Positions 16,277-32,502 of a DNA stretch of 64,000 nt are shown here, in pieces. The notes beneath the pieces were generated by a model. That model saw only the letters and a list, made by a program, of their open reading frames with translations. It was not told the DNA's origin and did no database searches. The number at the start of each line of letters is the position of its first letter. Within the stretch, counting starts at the first letter, position 1. A program made the position numbers and the translations under genes. Source of the DNA: a virus. The stretch is from the IMG/VR virus record IMGVR_UViG_3300035670_012166, positions 5,915 to 69,914 of that record. The stretch is one strand, 5' to 3'.

Positions 16277-19200
16277 TTAGTCAATCCAAGTGATTGTAAC
16301 ATCAAGCTTTGATGGATCATTCTTAGAAGCTTGTACAGATGTTCTAGAATAATTTCCACACTTGTAGCAGAATGTATTATTTTTTACTTTATGTGCTTCT
16401 CTATCACCGCAAGATGGGCAAACCATTCCAATTGGTAACATAGATTCTGCTTTTCTGTCAAATGCAGGTAAAGCAGTTTTCAAGTAAACATCTGAATCAA
16501 CAGTAGCAGAAAGTCTTACCATTGTTTTGATATCAGAAGCAACAGGTCCCATACCAGGAGCAGCTGGAGCAGGTGCAGGTGTTTCAGTAGGTGCAGTAGC
16601 TGCTCCTAAACCAGTATCTGGTCCAAGTCCCATTGGTTCTTCACCCATATCAGACTTGCCCTTATCTCCCATAGAAATAAGTTCAATTGATTGCATAATT
16701 TTGTATGTAGTGCCACAGCTTTGACAATCTGCATTAGACTCTGAAATATTTACATCATCAGAACCACAAACAGGACATACTGATCCCCAAGGTTTCTTTT
16801 CACCTGGTTCTGTCATTGCATCCATATCAGCAGATTCATTCATATCTGCTCCGCCAGTTAATGAAGAAATTCCTAAATCTCCACCAGCAGGAGCAGTAGC
16901 ACCTAAGCCTGGATCAACAGGACCAGCAGCAGGACCAGCAGGAGCTGGAGCACCCATTCCTGGCATTGCTTGAGCATATTTAGCTAAGACACTGTCTCTT
17001 CTTTCTTTTCTTGCGATTCTTGCAGTTTCTGTCATAATTACAGGAACATCTTCACCGCCTTCAATTACTTCTCCAACTTCACCAGATTCTGCTGAGTCTG
17101 TTTTGAATGTTTTAGAAGATGCAGTTGAAACAGTAGCTGTAACATCGCCATTTTCAGATACAAATAAATCAGTAAAAGAGAATGTTCCAGGATCTACTTG
17201 GAAACCGTGTCCTTGCAATACTTCAATAGCCTTTTGCTTGAATGTTTCATCAAAATTGCTATCTGATGGTTGAACACCATCTAAATCTTCAGCTCTGCAG
17301 ATAAATCTAATGCATTCTGATTTGCTTTGAGTAATTGTCATACCAGCAGTTCTTTCAGAAGCAACTACTGCTTTGGCAACTAATTTTTCTGCAACTTCAA
17401 ATTCTTCACAAAGTCTCTTAGCAGCCTTTGCAATTTTTCTTGTGCTAATGCCAAAATTTGTTGAATAATCTGCTAACCAACCAACAACATTATCAGAAAT
17501 GTTCTTTGTTGATGCAGTTTTAACACCCCAGAATTCTCTTCTTGCTCTTGCTCTTAATCTGCCATCAGTAGCAGTTGCAGTCTTTGCTTTATCAATAGCA
17601 GCCATCAATTGCTTTTCTGGCATAGCATCTACGGAATCTACTACTTCATCAGGAGTTGTTCCAGTTTCTTTCGAGGACATTGCCATAGCGGAAATTGCAG
17701 ATTTAAGATCATCTTTAGAGATAAGATCAGCATCAGCATCTACTGCAGACATAAGAGCTGATTTAAGTTCTTCATTTTTTGAAGGAGTGACATCAACATC
17801 TAATCCTTCTTCAGGAACAGCAGCATCTTTCATAAGTAATTCAGCAATTCTTGTGATGCCTTCTTTTGTAATTTCGCCTTCTTCAACTGCTACTGAAAGA
17901 GCATCAGAAAGATCTTTAGCTGTAATATCTGCAGAAACAGCAGCGCCTAATTGCTTAAGAATAGCTGCAACAGAATTATCAGGTTCCATTTCTTGATTGA
18001 AGAAATCTGCTCTTTCTGATTTATCAGATTCCATAGCAGAACCAGCAGCTGCTGTACCAATCATTTCTGGAAGCATTGGTTCATCAGACAATGTTTGTGC
18101 CACTCTAAGAATAGTTTTAGGAGTTTCATAAGAAGAAACTACAGCTCTTCCTAAAGCATTAATTGTAGCAGCCATAATTTCATGAGCACTTGCTGATCCT
18201 TCTGCTCTATGATTTGATAATTGCTCTTCAAGAATTCCAGTAGGTACACCGTGAGTAACTTCTTCAACAAGTTGAGTTAATGTTTCTCTTACAGCATCAT
18301 CCTTGACTCTTCTGCCATAAAGACCAGCATCACCAAGAAGAATCTCTTTGACTGCATCTTGACCTTCGCCAGTTTGCTTAGATTTGAGTTGTTCTTCTTT
18401 AGTGTTCTCATTAACTCCAGTGTTCTTACTCTTAACGCCATCAACTAAGTTGTCGTAAGATTCACCTTTTCTAACTTCATCAAGTTGCTTTTCTCTGTCA
18501 TCAAGTCTTTCTTTAACATCAAGCAATGCAGTTCTGACAAATTTAGAATAATCATTGAGTAATTCTGCAGCAACTCTTGTACCTTGTCCATTTTCCATCA
18601 AGTTTAATTGATTTTCATTAAGGATAGGTTCCCAAGCAGTTCTTTTGCCATTTGTGTAGCCTGTAATTGAACCATCAGTAGAAAGAACAACTCTATTGCC
18701 AGCATTGTCTTCGACTTTGAAATCGATTGTAACTGCAGCAGCAAGTTTTTTTCTTTGCTCTGATGCAATCTTTGCAAAGTGATCCATTTGATTTCTGCTC
18801 CCCGCCACGAAAGGCGTATTTGTTTTTATGTTTTTACTTCTTTCATTAGCAATTCTAATGACATTATCAATACTTTTTTGTACTTGCTTTTGATCATTTA
18901 AATTTTCTTTTAAATTTAAAATGCTCTTAGTTAAGTTTAAAAGTTTATTAGAAGATGAATTAGTTTGGGTACTTGCAAAAACTTCTCTTTTGCCATCTTT
19001 TGATGCCCATACTAAATTATTATAGCTAGAGGCTAAAGCTACGCCTCCTCCTATTTGTGGACCTTGGTTTTGATTTAATGATAAATCCATAATTTTTCCA
19101 ACAGAATCAGTTGGAGAATAATTAGCCAGTCCCACATTAGCTGCCATAGGAGAAGCTTGTTGTGCTTGACCTGGCTGACCTTGTTGTGCTTGAGGTTGAT

Positions 19201-20428
19201 TAATTTGTTGAGGTCTTTGTCCTGATCCAACATCTATGCCATCATCAATCATATCTTGCATAGTTGATTGTAATTCAGCCATAGATTTTGTAACTTTTCC
19301 AACGTGACCTAAATCAACATTGTCTTTTCTTGCAAACATATTCATCACAGCAACTTCTAAGAAATTAAGTGATAAATTAATCAAATCAAGAATATTTAAT
19401 CCAGAAGCAGGATCAATTCCAAGGGCTGATAACACTGCTTGAACAGTAGAATTTTGATTAGCTCCTTGTCCTGCTAATAAAGGACCTCCAACAAGTGTTC
19501 CAGCTTGTTGTGCTAATCTTATTGCTGTTTTAGCTGTGGAATTTGCAACCCTTAAGCAATTTTCATATTCTAATCTATCTTGTGTGTTATTAGGTAGATC
19601 TTGTAATGCTAAAACAATATTAGAAGAAATTTCATTAGCTTTCTTTTCTAAATTGGTGGCTGCATCTAGAACATCATCTACATCATAAATTTCTTGAATT
19701 TCGCAAGATTCAAAAGCACCATCACCTACACAGCTAAGTTCAATAAACTTAACTCCGTAGTTTTTTTCATAAGCTCTTTTGCCTGTTTCTGGATAAATTT
19801 TTCCTTTGTATTTCTTAAGGTGTTCACAATAATCTCTTTCTGTATATGCTTTATTACCGCAAACAGAACAAACACCCCATTCAACACTAGCTCCCATAGA
19901 AACATCATGAATTACACCAGTGCGAATATTTCTTGCAATATCTGGGTAAGCTTCTTCATCTACAAAGAAAGTACAGTAAACACAATTTTCTTTTTCATCC
20001 CACTCTGCATAAACAACCATACCTTTAGCTTGTTCAATATCATCGTTTTTATGGTTTGTGTAGATTGGAACGCCTTCGAAAGTTTTATATACTGGGATTT
20101 TTTCTCCCTTGATTTCTGTTTCTTTAAGTAATTCTTCTTTTGAAAACAAGTCACCATTAGCATTTACGACATCTGCATCTATAGCTCTGGCTCTTACCCA
20201 TAAAAGTTTAGCACCTTTACGAGCTTGCATTTCTTTAACAATGTCAAAATCTTTATATTTTTCCAGAACTTCTTTAGGATCAGCATAGAGAGATTGAAGA
20301 CCAATTTTAGCAGCTTCTCTCATATTAGTGGAAGCAGTTTTGATAATATATTCTCTTGCTATATTTCGGTCATTTTCGTTGAGAAAACTATTTATTGTAA
20401 TAGCTCCTCCTTTGGCAACCTTGTACAT
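16277..20428 (-). CDS. Prohead (capsid maturation) protease with long scaffold-like extension and Zn-ribbons
   Basis: N-terminal NANGD.F...NHK...G.V...DVSMGA...CSVCG...CEH...FIELSCV; C-terminal CxxC pairs. Confidence 0.7.
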   Translation of the reverse strand: MYKVAKGGAITINSFLNENDRNIAREYIIKTASTNMREAAKIGLQSLYADPKEVLEKYKDFDIVKEMQARKGAKLLWVRARAIDADVVNANGDLFSKEELLKETEIKGEKIPVYKTFEGVPIYTNHKNDDIEQAKGMVVYAEWDEKENCVYCTFFVDEEAYPDIARNIRTGVIHDVSMGASVEWGVCSVCGNKAYTERDYCEHLKKYKGKIYPETGKRAYEKNYGVKFIELSCVGDGAFESCEIQEIYDVDDVLDAATNLEKKANEISSNIVLALQDLPNNTQDRLEYENCLRVANSTAKTAIRLAQQAGTLVGGPLLAGQGANQNSTVQAVLSALGIDPASGLNILDLINLSLNFLEVAVMNMFARKDNVDLGHVGKVTKSMAELQSTMQDMIDDGIDVGSGQRPQQINQPQAQQGQPGQAQQASPMAANVGLANYSPTDSVGKIMDLSLNQNQGPQIGGGVALASSYNNLVWASKDGKREVFASTQTNSSSNKLLNLTKSILNLKENLNDQKQVQKSIDNVIRIANERSKNIKTNTPFVAGSRNQMDHFAKIASEQRKKLAAAVTIDFKVEDNAGNRVVLSTDGSITGYTNGKRTAWEPILNENQLNLMENGQGTRVAAELLNDYSKFVRTALLDVKERLDDREKQLDEVRKGESYDNLVDGVKSKNTGVNENTKEEQLKSKQTGEGQDAVKEILLGDAGLYGRRVKDDAVRETLTQLVEEVTHGVPTGILEEQLSNHRAEGSASAHEIMAATINALGRAVVSSYETPKTILRVAQTLSDEPMLPEMIGTAAAGSAMESDKSERADFFNQEMEPDNSVAAILKQLGAAVSADITAKDLSDALSVAVEEGEITKEGITRIAELLMKDAAVPEEGLDVDVTPSKNEELKSALMSAVDADADLISKDDLKSAISAMAMSSKETGTTPDEVVDSVDAMPEKQLMAAIDKAKTATATDGRLRARARREFWGVKTASTKNISDNVVGWLADYSTNFGISTRKIAKAAKRLCEEFEVAEKLVAKAVVASERTAGMTITQSKSECIRFICRAEDLDGVQPSDSNFDETFKQKAIEVLQGHGFQVDPGTFSFTDLFVSENGDVTATVSTASSKTFKTDSAESGEVGEVIEGGEDVPVIMTETARIARKERRDSVLAKYAQAMPGMGAPAPAGPAAGPVDPGLGATAPAGGDLGISSLTGGADMNESADMDAMTEPGEKKPWGSVCPVCGSDDVNISESNADCQSCGTTYKIMQSIELISMGDKGKSDMGEEPMGLGPDTGLGAATAPTETPAPAPAAPGMGPVASDIKTMVRLSATVDSDVYLKTALPAFDRKAESMLPIGMVCPSCGDREAHKVKNNTFCYKCGNYSRTSVQASKNDPSKLDVTITWID

Positions 20429-20554: not shown

Positions 20555-22915
20555 TTAAAGATATTCAGATTCACCTTCTCCCATACCTGTTCTTTTTTTG
20601 ATAACATTAATTAAAACATTTAAACAATCTTGTGGATGGTCATTGATTTCTTTGTCTGTGAATCTAACAATAATCCATCCATTTGCAGCTAACTCAGAAT
20701 CTCTTCTTTTATCTTTTGCAATTTTGTCTGGATTGTTATGCCAAATTTCACCATCAGCTTCAATTCCAATCTTAAGATTTGGAATTGCTCCATCTAATTG
20801 ATAGTCCATACTAGGTCCAGCAGAATATTGAGCATAAAGTGGGTATGGCATATTCAATGACATCAATAATCCATATAGCTTTTTCTCAAGATTTGTAAAC
20901 ATTTTTGGTTGCTGTGCATTGTCTAATTTTTTTGCAGCAAATTTCTTAAAGTTCTCATTTTCAGATAAAACATATATTTCATTAAGCGCAAAATTATTCA
21001 ATGGATGAGAACTATTACCTCCAAGTAATGGTGTTTGTATAGGACCAAATAAACCATCATATTCATCTGCTAAAGGTCCAAGGGAACCTCTTCCAGTGAC
21101 AGGAGTTTGAGACATCAAAAAGCCTTCGTGAGCAGCTGACTTAATTTTTCTACTTGCTGTTTTTACATTAGAATTCTTTTTATCAATTCTTTCAGTCCAA
21201 ACATTGTTAATAATTGAACTGGCTAACTTGTAATTTTTAAGCATAGTTGATGCTGTAGGCATTGGGGCTGGCGCAGCTGGAGCAGGAGCAGCACCACCAG
21301 GAGCAGGAGTGCTTGCACCACCAACACCTAAATCTGGAGTAGGAGGAGCACTTTCAGCGGAAACCTCTCCAGTTCCACCAGTAAATCCTTGACCTGTAAC
21401 ACCACCACTTTGAAAACTTAATGAGATATTAGGTGTTCCAAAATTTTGATCATTTACAAAATTTGCACCTTGTTCAAATCTCAATCTTTCAATTTCTTGA
21501 TCAGAATCTAATCCGAAAGCTTCAATTAAAGAAACATTAGAGATAACACCATTTTGATTTGCTGTAACAAGCATTTGTAGTTTTCCAGTATCATCTCTTA
21601 ATTGTAAATCATCAAATTTGATTTTTGGATAAACTAATTCATCTTGTCCACGTTCGCCTTCAATAACAAAACCATTCCATTTTGCTACTGGCATAAAAAC
21701 ACATTGTTCAATCCAATGTGCCACTTCTCTTCTGAATGTCTCTAATCTTTGAGCCATAGCAAGAAGACCAACTTGAGCATTACCGTAAGTTGGACCCTCA
21801 CCATTAAGAAGAGCTTTATTAAGCATAACTCCATCTAAAATCTCTTGTTCAATTAATTCAAATTCACCAGTAAGAGGATGAATCTTACCTGTTGCTCCAT
21901 ACCATTCAAGATCAAAGTTGTGGTGTGTAACAAGAGTAAGGTTTGGATCATTAGCAATTGATGCTAATTCATCTTGAACATTGTCAATATCTTCTTGAGA
22001 TGCTGGACGAGTATCACTTCCAATCTTAACTACCTTGATTGGTAAAATAAGACGTTCAGCAATCATATATTGAGCTTGGCGTAGTTTATCTTTATATGTA
22101 AGAATTGGAAACAATGGTCTGATCATAGAAATTCCATAATCTTCCCAAGGGTTTGATCCATATTTAAAATGATGTATAGAAATAGGGTTTAATTTGATAG
22201 GATTACCCTGCATAATCATCTTTTTGATATCGTCAGGAATCTTGTCGTAGATTTCTTTAGGATGTCTTTCGTTGACAATTCTAATTTCTTCTGCAGATGG
22301 TCTGTATGCATAACTACCTGGTTGATCAATCATTCCTGGAGTTTTGATTACAGAATCAGGGTTTAAGATAGAAATCGATTTCCAAGTTGCACCATCATGC
22401 TCACATTCTTGATTTTTATCATCATCCCAGTTTGAACCGTGGCAATGTGGACAATCAAGTGAAAGTAAAACGAATGAATCTCCAAGTAAATGGTAAGTTT
22501 TGGAAATTTCTGGAAGCCACTTTTGAAAGTTTAAAGATTCAACTAGTTTTTCAAAATAATCTTTAACATAAGCTGAAGAACATTCTAATTTCCAACCAGA
22601 GAAAGGATAGTTGGTATAGAAATTTATGGCTGCAGCAATTTTAGGTTCATTATTTCTCCACCAGTTAGCCCAAAGATAAATCTCACGACGAGCATTTGGA
22701 ATTTGAAAAGATGATGGAGTGAGGAATGGCGAATAAAAATTTGGAGCTGTAGTAACGGTATTGATGCTAGCAGTTCTTGTTACGCTAGGTCCTAAACCTA
22801 AACCAATTCTACTACTTGCATAATTTTTATCTACAGGTGAATTAGGGGTGCTTGCTCCTGATACTTGTGTAGCTGCTGTTCTAATTGCAGAAGCCAAAGA
22901 TGTTCTATTTGCCAT
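20555..22915 (-). CDS. Portal protein with C-terminal DUF559/Vsr-like endonuclease domain
   Basis: Portal-like core (HHFKY..NPW..YG.S.IRP; PIKVVKIG; VPKIKFDDL-like); C-terminal LDGA...IEADGEIWH...DKRRD..L...GW.IVRF. Confidence 0.7.
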   Translation of the reverse strand: MANRTSLASAIRTAATQVSGASTPNSPVDKNYASSRIGLGLGPSVTRTASINTVTTAPNFYSPFLTPSSFQIPNARREIYLWANWWRNNEPKIAAAINFYTNYPFSGWKLECSSAYVKDYFEKLVESLNFQKWLPEISKTYHLLGDSFVLLSLDCPHCHGSNWDDDKNQECEHDGATWKSISILNPDSVIKTPGMIDQPGSYAYRPSAEEIRIVNERHPKEIYDKIPDDIKKMIMQGNPIKLNPISIHHFKYGSNPWEDYGISMIRPLFPILTYKDKLRQAQYMIAERLILPIKVVKIGSDTRPASQEDIDNVQDELASIANDPNLTLVTHHNFDLEWYGATGKIHPLTGEFELIEQEILDGVMLNKALLNGEGPTYGNAQVGLLAMAQRLETFRREVAHWIEQCVFMPVAKWNGFVIEGERGQDELVYPKIKFDDLQLRDDTGKLQMLVTANQNGVISNVSLIEAFGLDSDQEIERLRFEQGANFVNDQNFGTPNISLSFQSGGVTGQGFTGGTGEVSAESAPPTPDLGVGGASTPAPGGAAPAPAAPAPMPTASTMLKNYKLASSIINNVWTERIDKKNSNVKTASRKIKSAAHEGFLMSQTPVTGRGSLGPLADEYDGLFGPIQTPLLGGNSSHPLNNFALNEIYVLSENENFKKFAAKKLDNAQQPKMFTNLEKKLYGLLMSLNMPYPLYAQYSAGPSMDYQLDGAIPNLKIGIEADGEIWHNNPDKIAKDKRRDSELAANGWIIVRFTDKEINDHPQDCLNVLINVIKKRTGMGEGESEYL

Positions 22916-28033: not shown

Positions 28034-28414
28034 TTATGTTTTTTTACTTAAAATAAGTTTTTTGCCCTTCAAGAGCAATTTGTCACCAATCTTAATTCCA
28101 AGCTTATCAAACAATCCCTTATTTGCTTCTACAACAAATACAATATCATTTGATTTTGGAGATACTGATTTTGGATCATCAGCCTCCATATCTTTAAAAT
28201 CAACAATTTCCGAATCTTTATTTAGAAATGCAAGTGTTAAAGCAAATGAAACATTTTTATTCCAAAAAGAATAATTATCAGGATAATCAAAAACAAAAAA
28301 TGCTACTTCGTAATCATCTAATGGCTCTGCATCCATCAATCCTTTTACTCTAAGCTTGTCATTATCAGCAATAAATCTAACATCAAATTCATCACGGAAT
28401 TTAGATGCAGTGAG
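28034..28414 (-). CDS. DUF192 domain; the frame continues upstream to the in-frame TGA of the preceding ORF (readthrough or disrupted gene)
   Basis: IADNDKLRVKGLM...FFVF....SFWNKNV.F.L..AF....VVEAN.G; no ATG/GTG/TTG between 28414 and 28340. Confidence 0.7.
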   Translation of the reverse strand, partial: LTASKFRDEFDVRFIADNDKLRVKGLMDAEPLDDYEVAFFVFDYPDNYSFWNKNVSFALTLAFLNKDSEIVDFKDMEADDPKSVSPKSNDIVFVVEANKGLFDKLGIKIGDKLLLKGKKLILSKKT

Positions 28415-28906
28415 TCAAGAACCAACTTTCTTAAATTTATTTGAAGAGGCTTTTACACTTCTTGCTTCTTCCAAATCAAATCTGTCTTTTGTTCTTTGTT
28501 TTCTAAATTCATTTACATTATCAGTTGAAAGATAATGATCTCTCAATGCAAGTTTAGCTCTGTCAGTAAGCTCAACTGATCTACCATAACCTGTGAGAAG
28601 TCCAGCAGTTTTTAATGCTAATAAATCATTGTCAGAAATATCACTAGGAACTCCACATATTTTTCCATCTTTATTTAATGCTAAATGACTTGCAGCTGTG
28701 ACTAAGGCATCTGTATTTGCATCAATAGTCTTAAGCATTTCTAAATATCTATCACTTAATTTAGCTGCTTCAATTTTCTTAGGAGCTTGTGAAACACCCA
28801 AAAGTTGAATTTGAATATCAGAAAGTCCTAAACCCTCCATTGAAGGTCCGTCAAATAATTCTGCGTGTAAATCTAATGAATGAACTGGTTTAATTGGTAT
28901 TGGCAT
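28415..28906 (-). CDS. Hypothetical protein, N-terminal partner of the DUF192 frame
   Basis: 163 aa ending in TGA at 28415-28417; AGGA RBS. Confidence 0.6.
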   Translation of the reverse strand: MPIPIKPVHSLDLHAELFDGPSMEGLGLSDIQIQLLGVSQAPKKIEAAKLSDRYLEMLKTIDANTDALVTAASHLALNKDGKICGVPSDISDNDLLALKTAGLLTGYGRSVELTDRAKLALRDHYLSTDNVNEFRKQRTKDRFDLEEARSVKASSNKFKKVGS

Positions 28907-28917
28907 TGTAATTTTCC

Positions 28918-29367
28918 TTATCTGTATGGTAATCTATTTTTCCAAGCATTTCCTTCGTCAACATTCTTTTGATAAGTTTCATCCCAAGAAAACTTATCAT
29001 CAATATCTTCACCTTTAGAAATAGCCATTGATGGGCTTGAAGCTGGATTGCCTGGATCTACATATGCAGGACCAGGAACATTGTCGGGACCATGTAATTG
29101 TCCTTCTATATTTTGTCCATCATCCTCTCCACCTAAATCACGATATTCTGGCACTCTTTTTCTAGGATTGATTTTTTGTCGCCAGTAATCATTATTTTCA
29201 TATTCTTCTTCTAGTTCTTCATAAGGAACTAAAGAAACATTAGGAACTTGAGTGACTGATGTTTGCGGATAATATTGAGCAATCTTTTCAAATAATTTAT
29301 CTGATTCCTTAACAAATCCACTATTATCTAAAATAGAACACACCTTAATTATGGAATTAAGTTTCAT
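28918..29367 (-). CDS. Hypothetical protein with LDxxG-type leader
   Basis: MKLNSIIKVCSILDNSGFVKESDKLFEKIAQ. Confidence 0.6.
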   Translation of the reverse strand: MKLNSIIKVCSILDNSGFVKESDKLFEKIAQYYPQTSVTQVPNVSLVPYEELEEEYENNDYWRQKINPRKRVPEYRDLGGEDDGQNIEGQLHGPDNVPGPAYVDPGNPASSPSMAISKGEDIDDKFSWDETYQKNVDEGNAWKNRLPYR

Positions 29368-30390: not shown

Positions 30391-32502
30391 TTACCTTCTA
30401 TTCAAATTAACCATTTTTGCTCTAGGTAATCTCACAGCAATTTTAGATGTTAAACATTCATATGAAACAGCAGCAACAGCATCACAAATATCATCTTTGT
30501 AGCCAGACAAAGCTTCGATATAATATCTTTTGCCTTTCCATTTTTTTTGCAAGAATAAAAACTGAATTTTAGCTTCTTGTATTTCATTTAATGGTTGCAA
30601 GGTATTGTTCAAGTCATAGTAAGATCCACCTGAAAGATCATAAATATCTATCCTGTCATCTCTTATCAATTGAGCAAGTTCTGTGTAAATTTTTTCTTTA
30701 TATTCTTTGTTGAATTGTCTTTCAACAATTGGAATCCTCATAGATTGCAATTTAATTAAAGAGGATTGTGAATTCCATTGATCAATACTTACTTGTTTGA
30801 ATTTAAATCTCTGATGAAGATCAATTACATAATCTTCGATATCTTTTTCTTGAACTGGTTGATTTTTAGTTTTTGGATTCCAAAAATGAATGTGATCAAT
30901 TACCACTCTTTTCAATGGTTTAAAGTCAGGGCCAATTTCACCATACATATTTTCTGTATGAGCTATAACAAGAGCGTAATAATCAGAAGTTCTTGCTGGA
31001 TCTAAATGGCAGAAATATTCAAAATGACCATCAGCAAATTCTTTTCTTTTTACCATAGACATTGATGTAAACATTCTCTCAATGTCTTCTGCAGAGAAGA
31101 TAGGATCTGAAGAAGAAGCACCAAATTCAGCTCCATATTGCATTTGAAATTCTTGAGGGTCTTTTTTCTTTTGTCCATCAAGCCAATCTTTATCAATATT
31201 AGGATTTGTAAGCCAAGTGGGAAGTCTCATAACAAGAGTGGTAGGATCTTCTTGTCTGTTTTCATGCAAATCATAAAGTAATCCAATAGGTCCTTTAGGG
31301 TTGGAAAGCATCATCATCTTTCCATCTTTACCAAATGTTGCAAGAGATGGTTTTAATTCATCATATAAGGCATAATCCACACCACTATCTGGATTATCAC
31401 CAGCCATAGCAGCTACCTCGTCCATAATTATTGACCAACAAGTTAAACCAACAAGGCCAGACGCATTACTAGAACCACACCTTAATACTAAAGATCCAGC
31501 AAATAAATTAATACCTTGATCAGATCTTCTTACATTTTCTTCTCTATCGTGTTCTGTGTAAAACCTCATTTCAAGTTCTGTATCTTTGCCAATATAAGGA
31601 GCAAAAAATGGAGAGGCTAAAACTGTTTGCTTGATTTTAGAGAAGATTGCCTTTTTAGCCTGTTCTTCATTACGAGCAACATTCAATAGAACAATCTCAT
31701 CGAATTCCATCAAGCCATATCTTGCTTGAGGATGACCCATAGAAATTAATCTGTAAAGTTCATATAGAGCCATAGCAGAAACAAGAAATGATTTTCCAGA
31801 ACGTCTACCTAGTACTAAAACAAGTTCTTCAAACTTAAATCTTTGCTTTGATTTTTGTTCTACTTGCATTCTGAGTTTAGGATCAAACTCTTCAGAATAA
31901 AGTAAATCATTTTCTGATTGATATCCATCAATTATAGGTCTAGCTTCTAAATTTTCTACTTGTCTTTCAGCATCAGGGTTAGTAGCTTCTTGTCTTGCAT
32001 ATTCATATCTAGCTTTTCTTACATCATTGTTAAGTCTAGAACATTGCAAACAAGGAGAATTAACTACATTGAAAATTGTTTTGAAATTTCTCTCTTCTTT
32101 TCTAGCTTTCAAAAAATCATTTTCATTTTTTTGAATATAGTTCCAAACACAACCTTGGCAATCAACTTCATTTTCTGTATTGTCAATTACAAGATTGGTA
32201 TTTCCTTCTTGTCCCATATAAAAACATTTTAAGATAAGTTTTTGCCAAGGATAAGGCTTAAGATTACAGAAAAAAGGGTGTTCAATAAAAGTGATAATAT
32301 CTACAATTTGATCAGGATTAAATCTATCTTTTGGTGGTTTTACAGGTGGAGCAACTTCTTGTCTAGTGGCAGGAGCAATTTCTTCATCAAAATCTCTGGC
32401 GTAAATTGTATCCTTGAAAAGCTCTTTTACTGAGTTTGCTTGTTGTAGTAATTGACTTTTTAACTCATTTGAACTTTTATTGACTTGAACTGGTTTTCTC
32501 AT
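30391..32502 (-). CDS. Terminase large subunit
   Basis: PYPWQ, Walker A GRRSGKS, Walker B IIMDE, LSNP, RNase H-like HLDPA...DDICDA. Confidence 0.9.
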   Translation of the reverse strand: MRKPVQVNKSSNELKSQLLQQANSVKELFKDTIYARDFDEEIAPATRQEVAPPVKPPKDRFNPDQIVDIITFIEHPFFCNLKPYPWQKLILKCFYMGQEGNTNLVIDNTENEVDCQGCVWNYIQKNENDFLKARKEERNFKTIFNVVNSPCLQCSRLNNDVRKARYEYARQEATNPDAERQVENLEARPIIDGYQSENDLLYSEEFDPKLRMQVEQKSKQRFKFEELVLVLGRRSGKSFLVSAMALYELYRLISMGHPQARYGLMEFDEIVLLNVARNEEQAKKAIFSKIKQTVLASPFFAPYIGKDTELEMRFYTEHDREENVRRSDQGINLFAGSLVLRCGSSNASGLVGLTCWSIIMDEVAAMAGDNPDSGVDYALYDELKPSLATFGKDGKMMMLSNPKGPIGLLYDLHENRQEDPTTLVMRLPTWLTNPNIDKDWLDGQKKKDPQEFQMQYGAEFGASSSDPIFSAEDIERMFTSMSMVKRKEFADGHFEYFCHLDPARTSDYYALVIAHTENMYGEIGPDFKPLKRVVIDHIHFWNPKTKNQPVQEKDIEDYVIDLHQRFKFKQVSIDQWNSQSSLIKLQSMRIPIVERQFNKEYKEKIYTELAQLIRDDRIDIYDLSGGSYYDLNNTLQPLNEIQEAKIQFLFLQKKWKGKRYYIEALSGYKDDICDAVAAVSYECLTSKIAVRLPRAKMVNLNRR

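Follow-up and report, generated by a model that had tools for sequence, protein, structure and literature searches.

Programmed stop-codon readthrough is textbook biology for bacteriophage Q-beta and for eukaryotic viruses, and tailed dsDNA phages extend their late proteins by frameshifting. At the coat/A1 gene of Q-beta (Qubevirus), an abundant short protein terminates at a leaky UGA, and readthrough by the host tRNA-Trp adds a folded C-terminal domain. The frameshifts that yield lambda G/GT and T7 10A/10B produce a minor, C-terminally extended late protein at a fixed ratio, and the autoregulatory site of prfB, CUU UGA C, directs a +1 frameshift on the slippery CUU. In-frame stops are also known from the late genes of large uncultured phages (crAss-like, Lak, and other recoded phages), which recode a stop across many genes, usually with a suppressor tRNA. 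Full-text literature searches turned up no description of conserved readthrough in a jumbo phage, nor of any such site with DUF192, a protein family that is mentioned always in passing and for which the titles and abstract openings of the literature that mentions it describe no function. Here, we describe an in-frame UGA in the head/packaging module of an uncultured jumbo phage at which, judging from sequence comparisons, programmed readthrough probably gives a short and a long product from one gene; we put the probability of this reading at roughly 0.72.

The DNA analyzed (hereafter the window) is a 64,000-nucleotide stretch of the IMG/VR virus record IMGVR_UViG_3300035670_012166. The whole record comprises 120,181 bases and is estimated to be 34% complete, whereas a 358-kb relative (G001) is estimated at 89%; taken together, these values imply a genome of roughly 400 kb, and the lineage is an uncultured, AT-rich jumbo phage with a GC content of 32%, one of a widespread group of such phages from water. 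Its TerL is at most 24% identical to that of any cultured phage, so the lineage has no close cultured relative, and among cultured phages we obtained one weak DUF192 match, in an unannotated faecal phage record. The ORF1-DUF192 gene is located in a late minus-strand head/packaging operon, between the gene for the large terminase and those for the portal and the protease (Table 1). We note that the portal carries a DUF559/REase_MTES_1575-like nuclease domain at its C terminus (residues ~703-771) and that the first ~250 residues of the 1383-aa protein match head-maturation protease families, the other ~1100 residues being without a family match. In relatives, a UDP-galactopyranose mutase-like gene (GLF/NAD_binding_8) occurs two genes upstream of ORF1 within the terminase-to-portal module, as seen at L077:1413-2522 and on a 204-kb contig.

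The first-pass annotation of the window had pointed out that the 163-aa ORF ends ...KKVGS-TGA and that the same frame goes on beyond the stop. This is indeed the case: the frame stays open for 126 codons before it reaches a TAA, and the chance of an open frame of this length in DNA with 32% GC is ~5e-5, as estimated from base composition. Reading the sequence also bore out the absence of any ATG, GTG, or TTG from the first 25 codons after the TGA; the codon that ends this run, the TTG at 28339-28337 (residue 190), encodes the Leu of a conserved KGLM motif. The TAS motif reported just after the stop is present in the window but is private to it, as the relatives have LTSK, LTNK, LNLS, and others in its place.

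Table 1. Positions of the ORF1-DUF192 gene, its recoding site, and neighboring genes, in window coordinates
Feature	Position	Strand	Remarks
Protease	16277-20428	-	1383-aa protein
Portal	20555-22915	-	Mu-like portal, PHROG portal families
TAA, true end of the long frame	28034-28036	-	126 codons past the TGA
Readthrough extension (proposed), 126 codons, without a start of its own before the domain begins	28037-28414	-	
DUF192 (PF02643) match	28076-28372	-	Pfam, PDB profiles, Foldseek
TTG, first canonical start-type codon after the TGA	28337-28339	-	Inside conserved KGLM
Hairpin, 6-bp stem, 6-nt loop CGUGAU	28385-28402	-	Starts 12 nt after the UGA
Codon after the stop, CTC (Leu), giving the UGA-C context	28412-28414	-	Homologue alignment
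In-frame UGA, leaky stop and proposed readthrough site	28415-28417	-	TGA in 67/67 distinct genes
ORF1, 163-aa short product, ATG start	28418-28906	-	Ends ...KKVGS-TGA
Shine-Dalgarno-like AAGGA	28915-28919	-	8 nt 5' of the ORF1 ATG; direct sequence reading
Large terminase	30391-32502		Late minus-strand operon

A TGA within a gene could simply be a sense codon throughout the phage or its host, either under code 4 or 25 or by late recoding with a suppressor tRNA, and gene callers have picked code 4 on many short AT-rich contigs. However, TGA ends 23 of the 103 long ORFs, in some cases as part of an ATGA overlap (e.g. 29364-29367), Trp is encoded by TGG 374 times, genes of up to 1383 codons hold no internal TGA, and the 120-kb record contains no second mid-ORF TGA like the one at the junction. 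This record encodes only tRNA-Glu and tRNA-Gln, and none of the nine tRNAs of the 89%-complete relative is a suppressor; in these two genomes, both of them incomplete, we detected no tRNA-Trp, no suppressor tRNA or tRNA with a UCA anticodon, and no SelB. The genetic code is standard, with no genome-wide recoding of TGA, and we consider a sense TGA extremely improbable. The public protein catalogues nevertheless give a different picture of the junction. A protein search recovered ~90 "fused" proteins of 278-293 aa, all from short contigs and all with a W at the junction, alongside ~30 shorter ones (162-180 aa) that stop just short of it. The fused proteins that were examined (P0034, P0017, P0081, and, on seven contigs, P0014) all need TGA to be read as W. 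The public fused proteins are code-4 gene calls and not TGG alleles, the spurious W having arisen because callers chose the Mycoplasma code (code 4) for short, AT-rich contigs. When the contig is long, the gene is annotated as a protein of 162-180 aa. At least ~90 cluster representatives, with hundreds of members, carry the spurious Trp in public catalogues, and the correct annotation would be that of a recoded gene with two products.

As the alternative to readthrough, it had been suggested at the outset that the TGA is a recent change from TGG or an assembly error, which the reads and the homologous loci should reveal. Two IMG/VR scans gave 149 junction-spanning loci, corresponding to 67 distinct full-length gene sequences, among which pairwise protein identity reaches down to 47%. 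The junction codon is TGA in 67/67 of these genes and TGG in none, and two short binned (MAG) contigs from GTDB genomes have the junction TGA as well. A search of GTDB genomes for the host gave these two contigs only, and they were uninformative. Further, in Logan contigs from four independent studies (subsurface, aquatic, marine, and estuary), which are assembled contigs and not raw reads, positions 28415-28417 are unchanged amid synonymous differences nearby. With all homologues and the independent assemblies of four studies in agreement, the likelihood of a sequencing or assembly error, or of a private nonsense mutation, is negligible.

The codon that follows the TGA is always Leu, encoded by CTC in 41, CTG in 25, and CTA in 1 of the 67 genes and never by TTA or TTG. 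In this genome, TTA accounts for 44% and TTG for 17% of Leu codons, compared with 3.8% for CTC, 2.2% for CTG, and 13% for CTC, CTG, and CTA together. With one of these rare Leu codons (CTC, CTG, or CTA) in 67/67 genes, UGA-C, the weakest stop context in bacteria, is invariant as a four-base signal. Where TGA serves as an ordinary stop in this genome, the next base is A (11 cases) or T (5 cases) and only once C. Bacteria terminate poorly when the base at +4 is C, above all at UGA (PMC5289835), and for UGA-C as a weak bacterial termination signal, PMC5289835 cites Poole, Brown and Tate 1995. Two other stops at the same loci, which serve as internal controls, have drifted: the final stop of the long frame is TAA in 56 relatives, TAG in 10, and TGA in 1, and the stop of the upstream gene is TAA in 37 and TAG in 29. 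The codon before the UGA also varies among the relatives (TCT, TCA, GGC, ACT, AAA, ATA, and others). Stop-hopping and frameshifting were considered and rejected, as take-off and landing codons do not match, a slippery site is lacking, and the frame is unchanged.

We then compared the extension with known domains and structures. Pfam places DUF192 on extension residues 15-113, covering profile positions 5-94 of 96 with an E value of 3e-19 and a score of 69.4 bits, which is above the gathering cut-off of 27, and PDB profiles match the extension with E values of 8.8e-9 (3pjy) and 3.7e-7 (3m7a). In an AF2 model of the read-through protein, residues 173-287 are folded (pLDDT ~80-87), and Foldseek aligns the model with 3m7a and 3pjy at TM scores of 0.66-0.75 (target-normalised) and an rmsd of 1.1-1.3 Å, the structural match beginning at residue 173, nine residues past the TGA. 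By profile and by model, the extension encodes a complete DUF192 domain. Residues 160-166, at the junction, are modeled as a disordered linker (pLDDT <50), so any inserted residue would be tolerated there. Because the first strand and helix of the domain are encoded before the TTG, a product started at this codon would lack strand 173-180 and helix 183-188 and would be truncated; the first-pass annotation was thus right to place the N terminus of DUF192 upstream of the first TTG or ATG.

At a dS of ~1.2, pairwise comparisons yield a dN/dS of 0.17 in ORF1 and of 0.215 in the extension; the value for the first 18 codons after the UGA is 0.35, with a dS of 0.72 compared with ~1.2 elsewhere. Between the TGA and KGLM, the entropies at the three codon positions are 0.88, 0.50, and 1.16, a profile typical of coding sequence that the rest of the gene shares, and the same stretch contains an invariant Arg that uses five codons and an invariant Ala that uses three. 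These patterns argue that the extension is translated sequence under purifying selection. No canonical start is conserved before the first strand of the domain, and 27 of the 67 genes are without any ATG, GTG, or TTG ahead of the Met of KGLM. In the absence of a conserved start in this stretch, ribosomes must enter the frame from upstream, across the UGA. A non-canonical start upstream of the domain, such as ATT or GTT, had been raised as an observation that would speak against readthrough, but the codon at the position of the ATT sits inside the first strand of the domain and varies among the relatives (GTA, ATA, TTA, ATT, GTT, CTT, and one ATG). It is also conceivable that the short protein is the only functional product and that DUF192 either decays as a remnant or is made in truncated form, starting at the ATG inside KGLM. 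In every sequence, the KGLM codons, AAA GGN YTN ATG, do provide an ATG together with a Shine-Dalgarno-like element (AAAGG, a chance match). However, the 26 codons before this ATG are under purifying selection and periodic, with invariant residues encoded by several codons, and they encode the strand and helix with which the DUF192 fold begins; further, a remnant would be expected to decay, whereas the frame is open in 67/67 genes at a dS above 1. We consider both versions of this explanation most unlikely. The comparison with Q-beta A1 made in the first-pass annotation is supported by the invariant UGA-C, the purifying selection, and the coding periodicity, from which we infer the long product.

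The short product has a conserved N terminus, MP(L/I)PI, a winged-helix-like core at residues ~49-130, and a basic tail that ends in the family-wide C-terminal motif KF(K/R)(K/R)(V/I)x0-3. The AF2 model of ORF1 has a pLDDT of 75. When residues 49-130 were compared with MarR-type winged helices, VIA-align returned Z scores of 6-7, which are below the tool's caution line of 8; its top matches are all winged helices, and the best Foldseek E value is only 0.04. The modeled core may thus bear a weak resemblance to the MarR-type winged helix. PHROGs contained no matching family for ORF1, the DUF192 part, or the fusion, and none of the ESM Atlas features for ORF1 was above 0.88. An ORF1 profile search gave 93 representative proteins. 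Most of them stand alone, are 150-180 aa long, and finish with this C-terminal motif, and these stand-alone relatives terminate at strong stops (TAA, TAATAA). The UGA thus coincides with the point at which a complete protein naturally ends. We note that the motif, in the form (S/N)KF(K/R)(K/R)(V/I), is kept even after long insertions (e.g. P0132 and P0136) and that, at the level of sequence, the extreme C-terminal motif looks like a docking peptide. Several members of the ORF1 family bear C-terminal extensions of other, unrelated kinds in which a TGA plays no part. The residues K-(V/I)-(A/G)-(S/T) before the stop were considered as a prohead-protease site that would free DUF192, and this idea was rejected, as in distant members of the clade the stop directly follows KK(T/V/I).

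Relatives with other gene arrangements show DUF192 as a gene of its own. On an outgroup contig of 1.6 kb (L174), the ORF1 of which is 61% identical, ORF1 ends in TAG, and a gene of its own, in another frame, encodes DUF192 (126 aa); from its ATG onward, this gene shares 7 nt with the end of ORF1. The overlap, ATGCTAG at L174:742-748, combines the DUF192 start ATG with the ORF1 stop TAG in a classic coupled arrangement. A more distant contig also has DUF192 apart, in a gene ~2.5 kb downstream. Judging by gene content, DUF192 is a recurrent companion of the ORF1 protein in the same module; the separate-gene outgroup is a single short contig, and either arrangement may have come first. The outgroup also bears on the possibility that ribosomes terminate at the UGA and restart on the adjacent CUG or CUC, in which case DUF192 would be made as a separate protein: its coupled DUF192 gene begins with Met-Leu, which aligns within two codons of the UGA-Leu of the clade, and the codon after the stop is CUG in 25 of the 67 genes. 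However, this codon is CUC in 41 genes and CUA in one, and neither is a known bacterial start codon. At a dS above 1, selection should have fixed AUG, GUG, or UUG, and none is conserved; there is no Shine-Dalgarno-like element just upstream beyond the Lys codons, and restarting would leave unexplained why UGA is kept in 67/67 genes while other stops drift. Termination followed by reinitiation is, in our view, unlikely.

Downstream of the UGA, a hairpin is seen in the main subclade (Table 1). Among the 35 distinct indel-free sequences of this subclade, 96% of cells are paired, and two compensatory changes occur, from G-C to A-U in 9 sequences and from U-A to C-G in 8. The covariation score was reached by 0/500 shuffles and was far lower in slid controls, although each of the two compensatory changes may have happened only once on the tree. 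Codon usage near the hairpin is biased, the first Phe being TTC in 72% of sequences compared with 24% in the genome and Arg being CGT in 37/37 compared with 12%. The 48-54 nt after the UGA fold at -8.8 kcal/mol compared with a gene average of -5.5 kcal/mol, and this stretch ranks first of 112 windows along the gene by its least stable cluster representative and about seventh by the mean; the signal is at most suggestive, with a Z score of about -1 relative to shuffles, and similar stability is seen elsewhere in the gene. RNAalifold, applied to the codon alignment of all 67 sequences, found no family-wide consensus structure after the UGA, and a covariance model (R1) built from the main-subclade hairpin aligned no hairpin in the other subclades, which show different hairpins at roughly the same place. 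A search of 28250-28520 against Rfam gave chance-level matches only. The hairpin is probably a local modifier in the main subclade. A larger role, in which hairpin-assisted decoding (by a readthrough stimulator or a SECIS-like element for selenocysteine) forms a tunable switch that has replaced a separate, coupled DUF192 gene, is rather doubtful, and we found no report of a hairpin that stimulates readthrough in bacteria or their dsDNA phages.

If the hairpin were a bacterial SECIS, the UGA would be decoded as selenocysteine with the tRNA-Sec and SelB of the host. In the minimal E. coli SECIS, the spacing is 11 nt, and the main-subclade hairpin, with its conserved loop CGUGAU, begins at a comparable distance from the UGA. 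However, the site is a disordered linker with variable neighbors and no redox motif. Selenoprotein families nearly always have Cys homologs, and Cys (TGT or TGC) occupies the site in 0/67 genes. Further, the site coincides with the natural C terminus of the stand-alone ORF1 relatives and lies near the DUF192 start of the outgroup, the hairpin is not carried into other subclades and belongs to no Rfam family, and no tRNA-Sec, SelB, SelA, or SelD was found in the phage records. We regard selenocysteine insertion as very unlikely. One candidate tRNA-Sec in G001 (C1:172659-172744) was rejected: it scored 47.7 bits against RF01852, for which the threshold is 47 bits, and ARAGORN identifies it as a tRNA-Ser with the anticodon tga. 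Such borderline RF01852 scores on tRNA-Ser(tga) are a trap for automated selenocysteine calls in phage genomes.

Under programmed readthrough, which remains our preferred reading, translation would mostly end at the UGA, yielding the 163-aa winged-helix-like protein. Termination would be weak owing to the C that follows the UGA (UGA-CUS), to which the hairpin may add in the main subclade, and a fraction of the ribosomes would accept a near-cognate tRNA of the host (most likely tRNA-Trp) at the UGA and translate the 126 codons that follow. The resulting 290-aa product would consist of the short protein and a complete DUF192 domain tethered to it by a disordered linker, and one gene would thus supply two proteins at a fixed ratio. 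We infer the occurrence and efficiency of readthrough, the residue inserted, and the role of the long form, which would be to tether DUF192 to the winged-helix-like protein at low stoichiometry late in infection. The locus offers a clean comparative case, with 67 diverged sequences that carry UGA-C, control stops that drift, and one outgroup contig with separate genes, and could serve as a natural bacterial-type readthrough cassette for testing the effects of context and of the hairpin. Further, the DUF192 family gains a concrete partner in the winged-helix-like protein of the packaging/head module.

How, then, does the locus compare with the systems described above? With the prfB site it shares the four-base signal UGA-C, which is present in all 67 sequences, and it differs from prfB in that the preceding codon varies and the downstream frame is frame 0, which implies readthrough and not a shift. 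Similarly, the logic of lambda G/GT and T7 10A/10B, a minor extended form of a late protein, would be achieved here by readthrough of a frame-0 stop and without a slippery heptamer. The crAss-like, Lak, and other recoded phages resemble this lineage in having in-frame stops in late genes of large uncultured phages, but theirs extend over many genes, whereas here there is one site, for which no suppressor tRNA was found. With Q-beta A1, this gene would share two products from one gene at a set ratio. However, Q-beta is a 4-kb ssRNA phage and the present lineage a dsDNA jumbo phage of roughly 400 kb; the short product of Q-beta is the coat protein, whereas here it is a winged-helix-like protein of the packaging/head module; and, unlike in A1, the part that would be added belongs to a cellular domain family, DUF192, that is a separate gene in one related contig. 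Finally, the phage domain has the sequence and the predicted fold of the DUF192/COG1430 proteins 3m7a and 3pjy, the latter named "hypothetical signal peptide protein" by its depositors, but it is without a signal peptide and would be reached only via the UGA.
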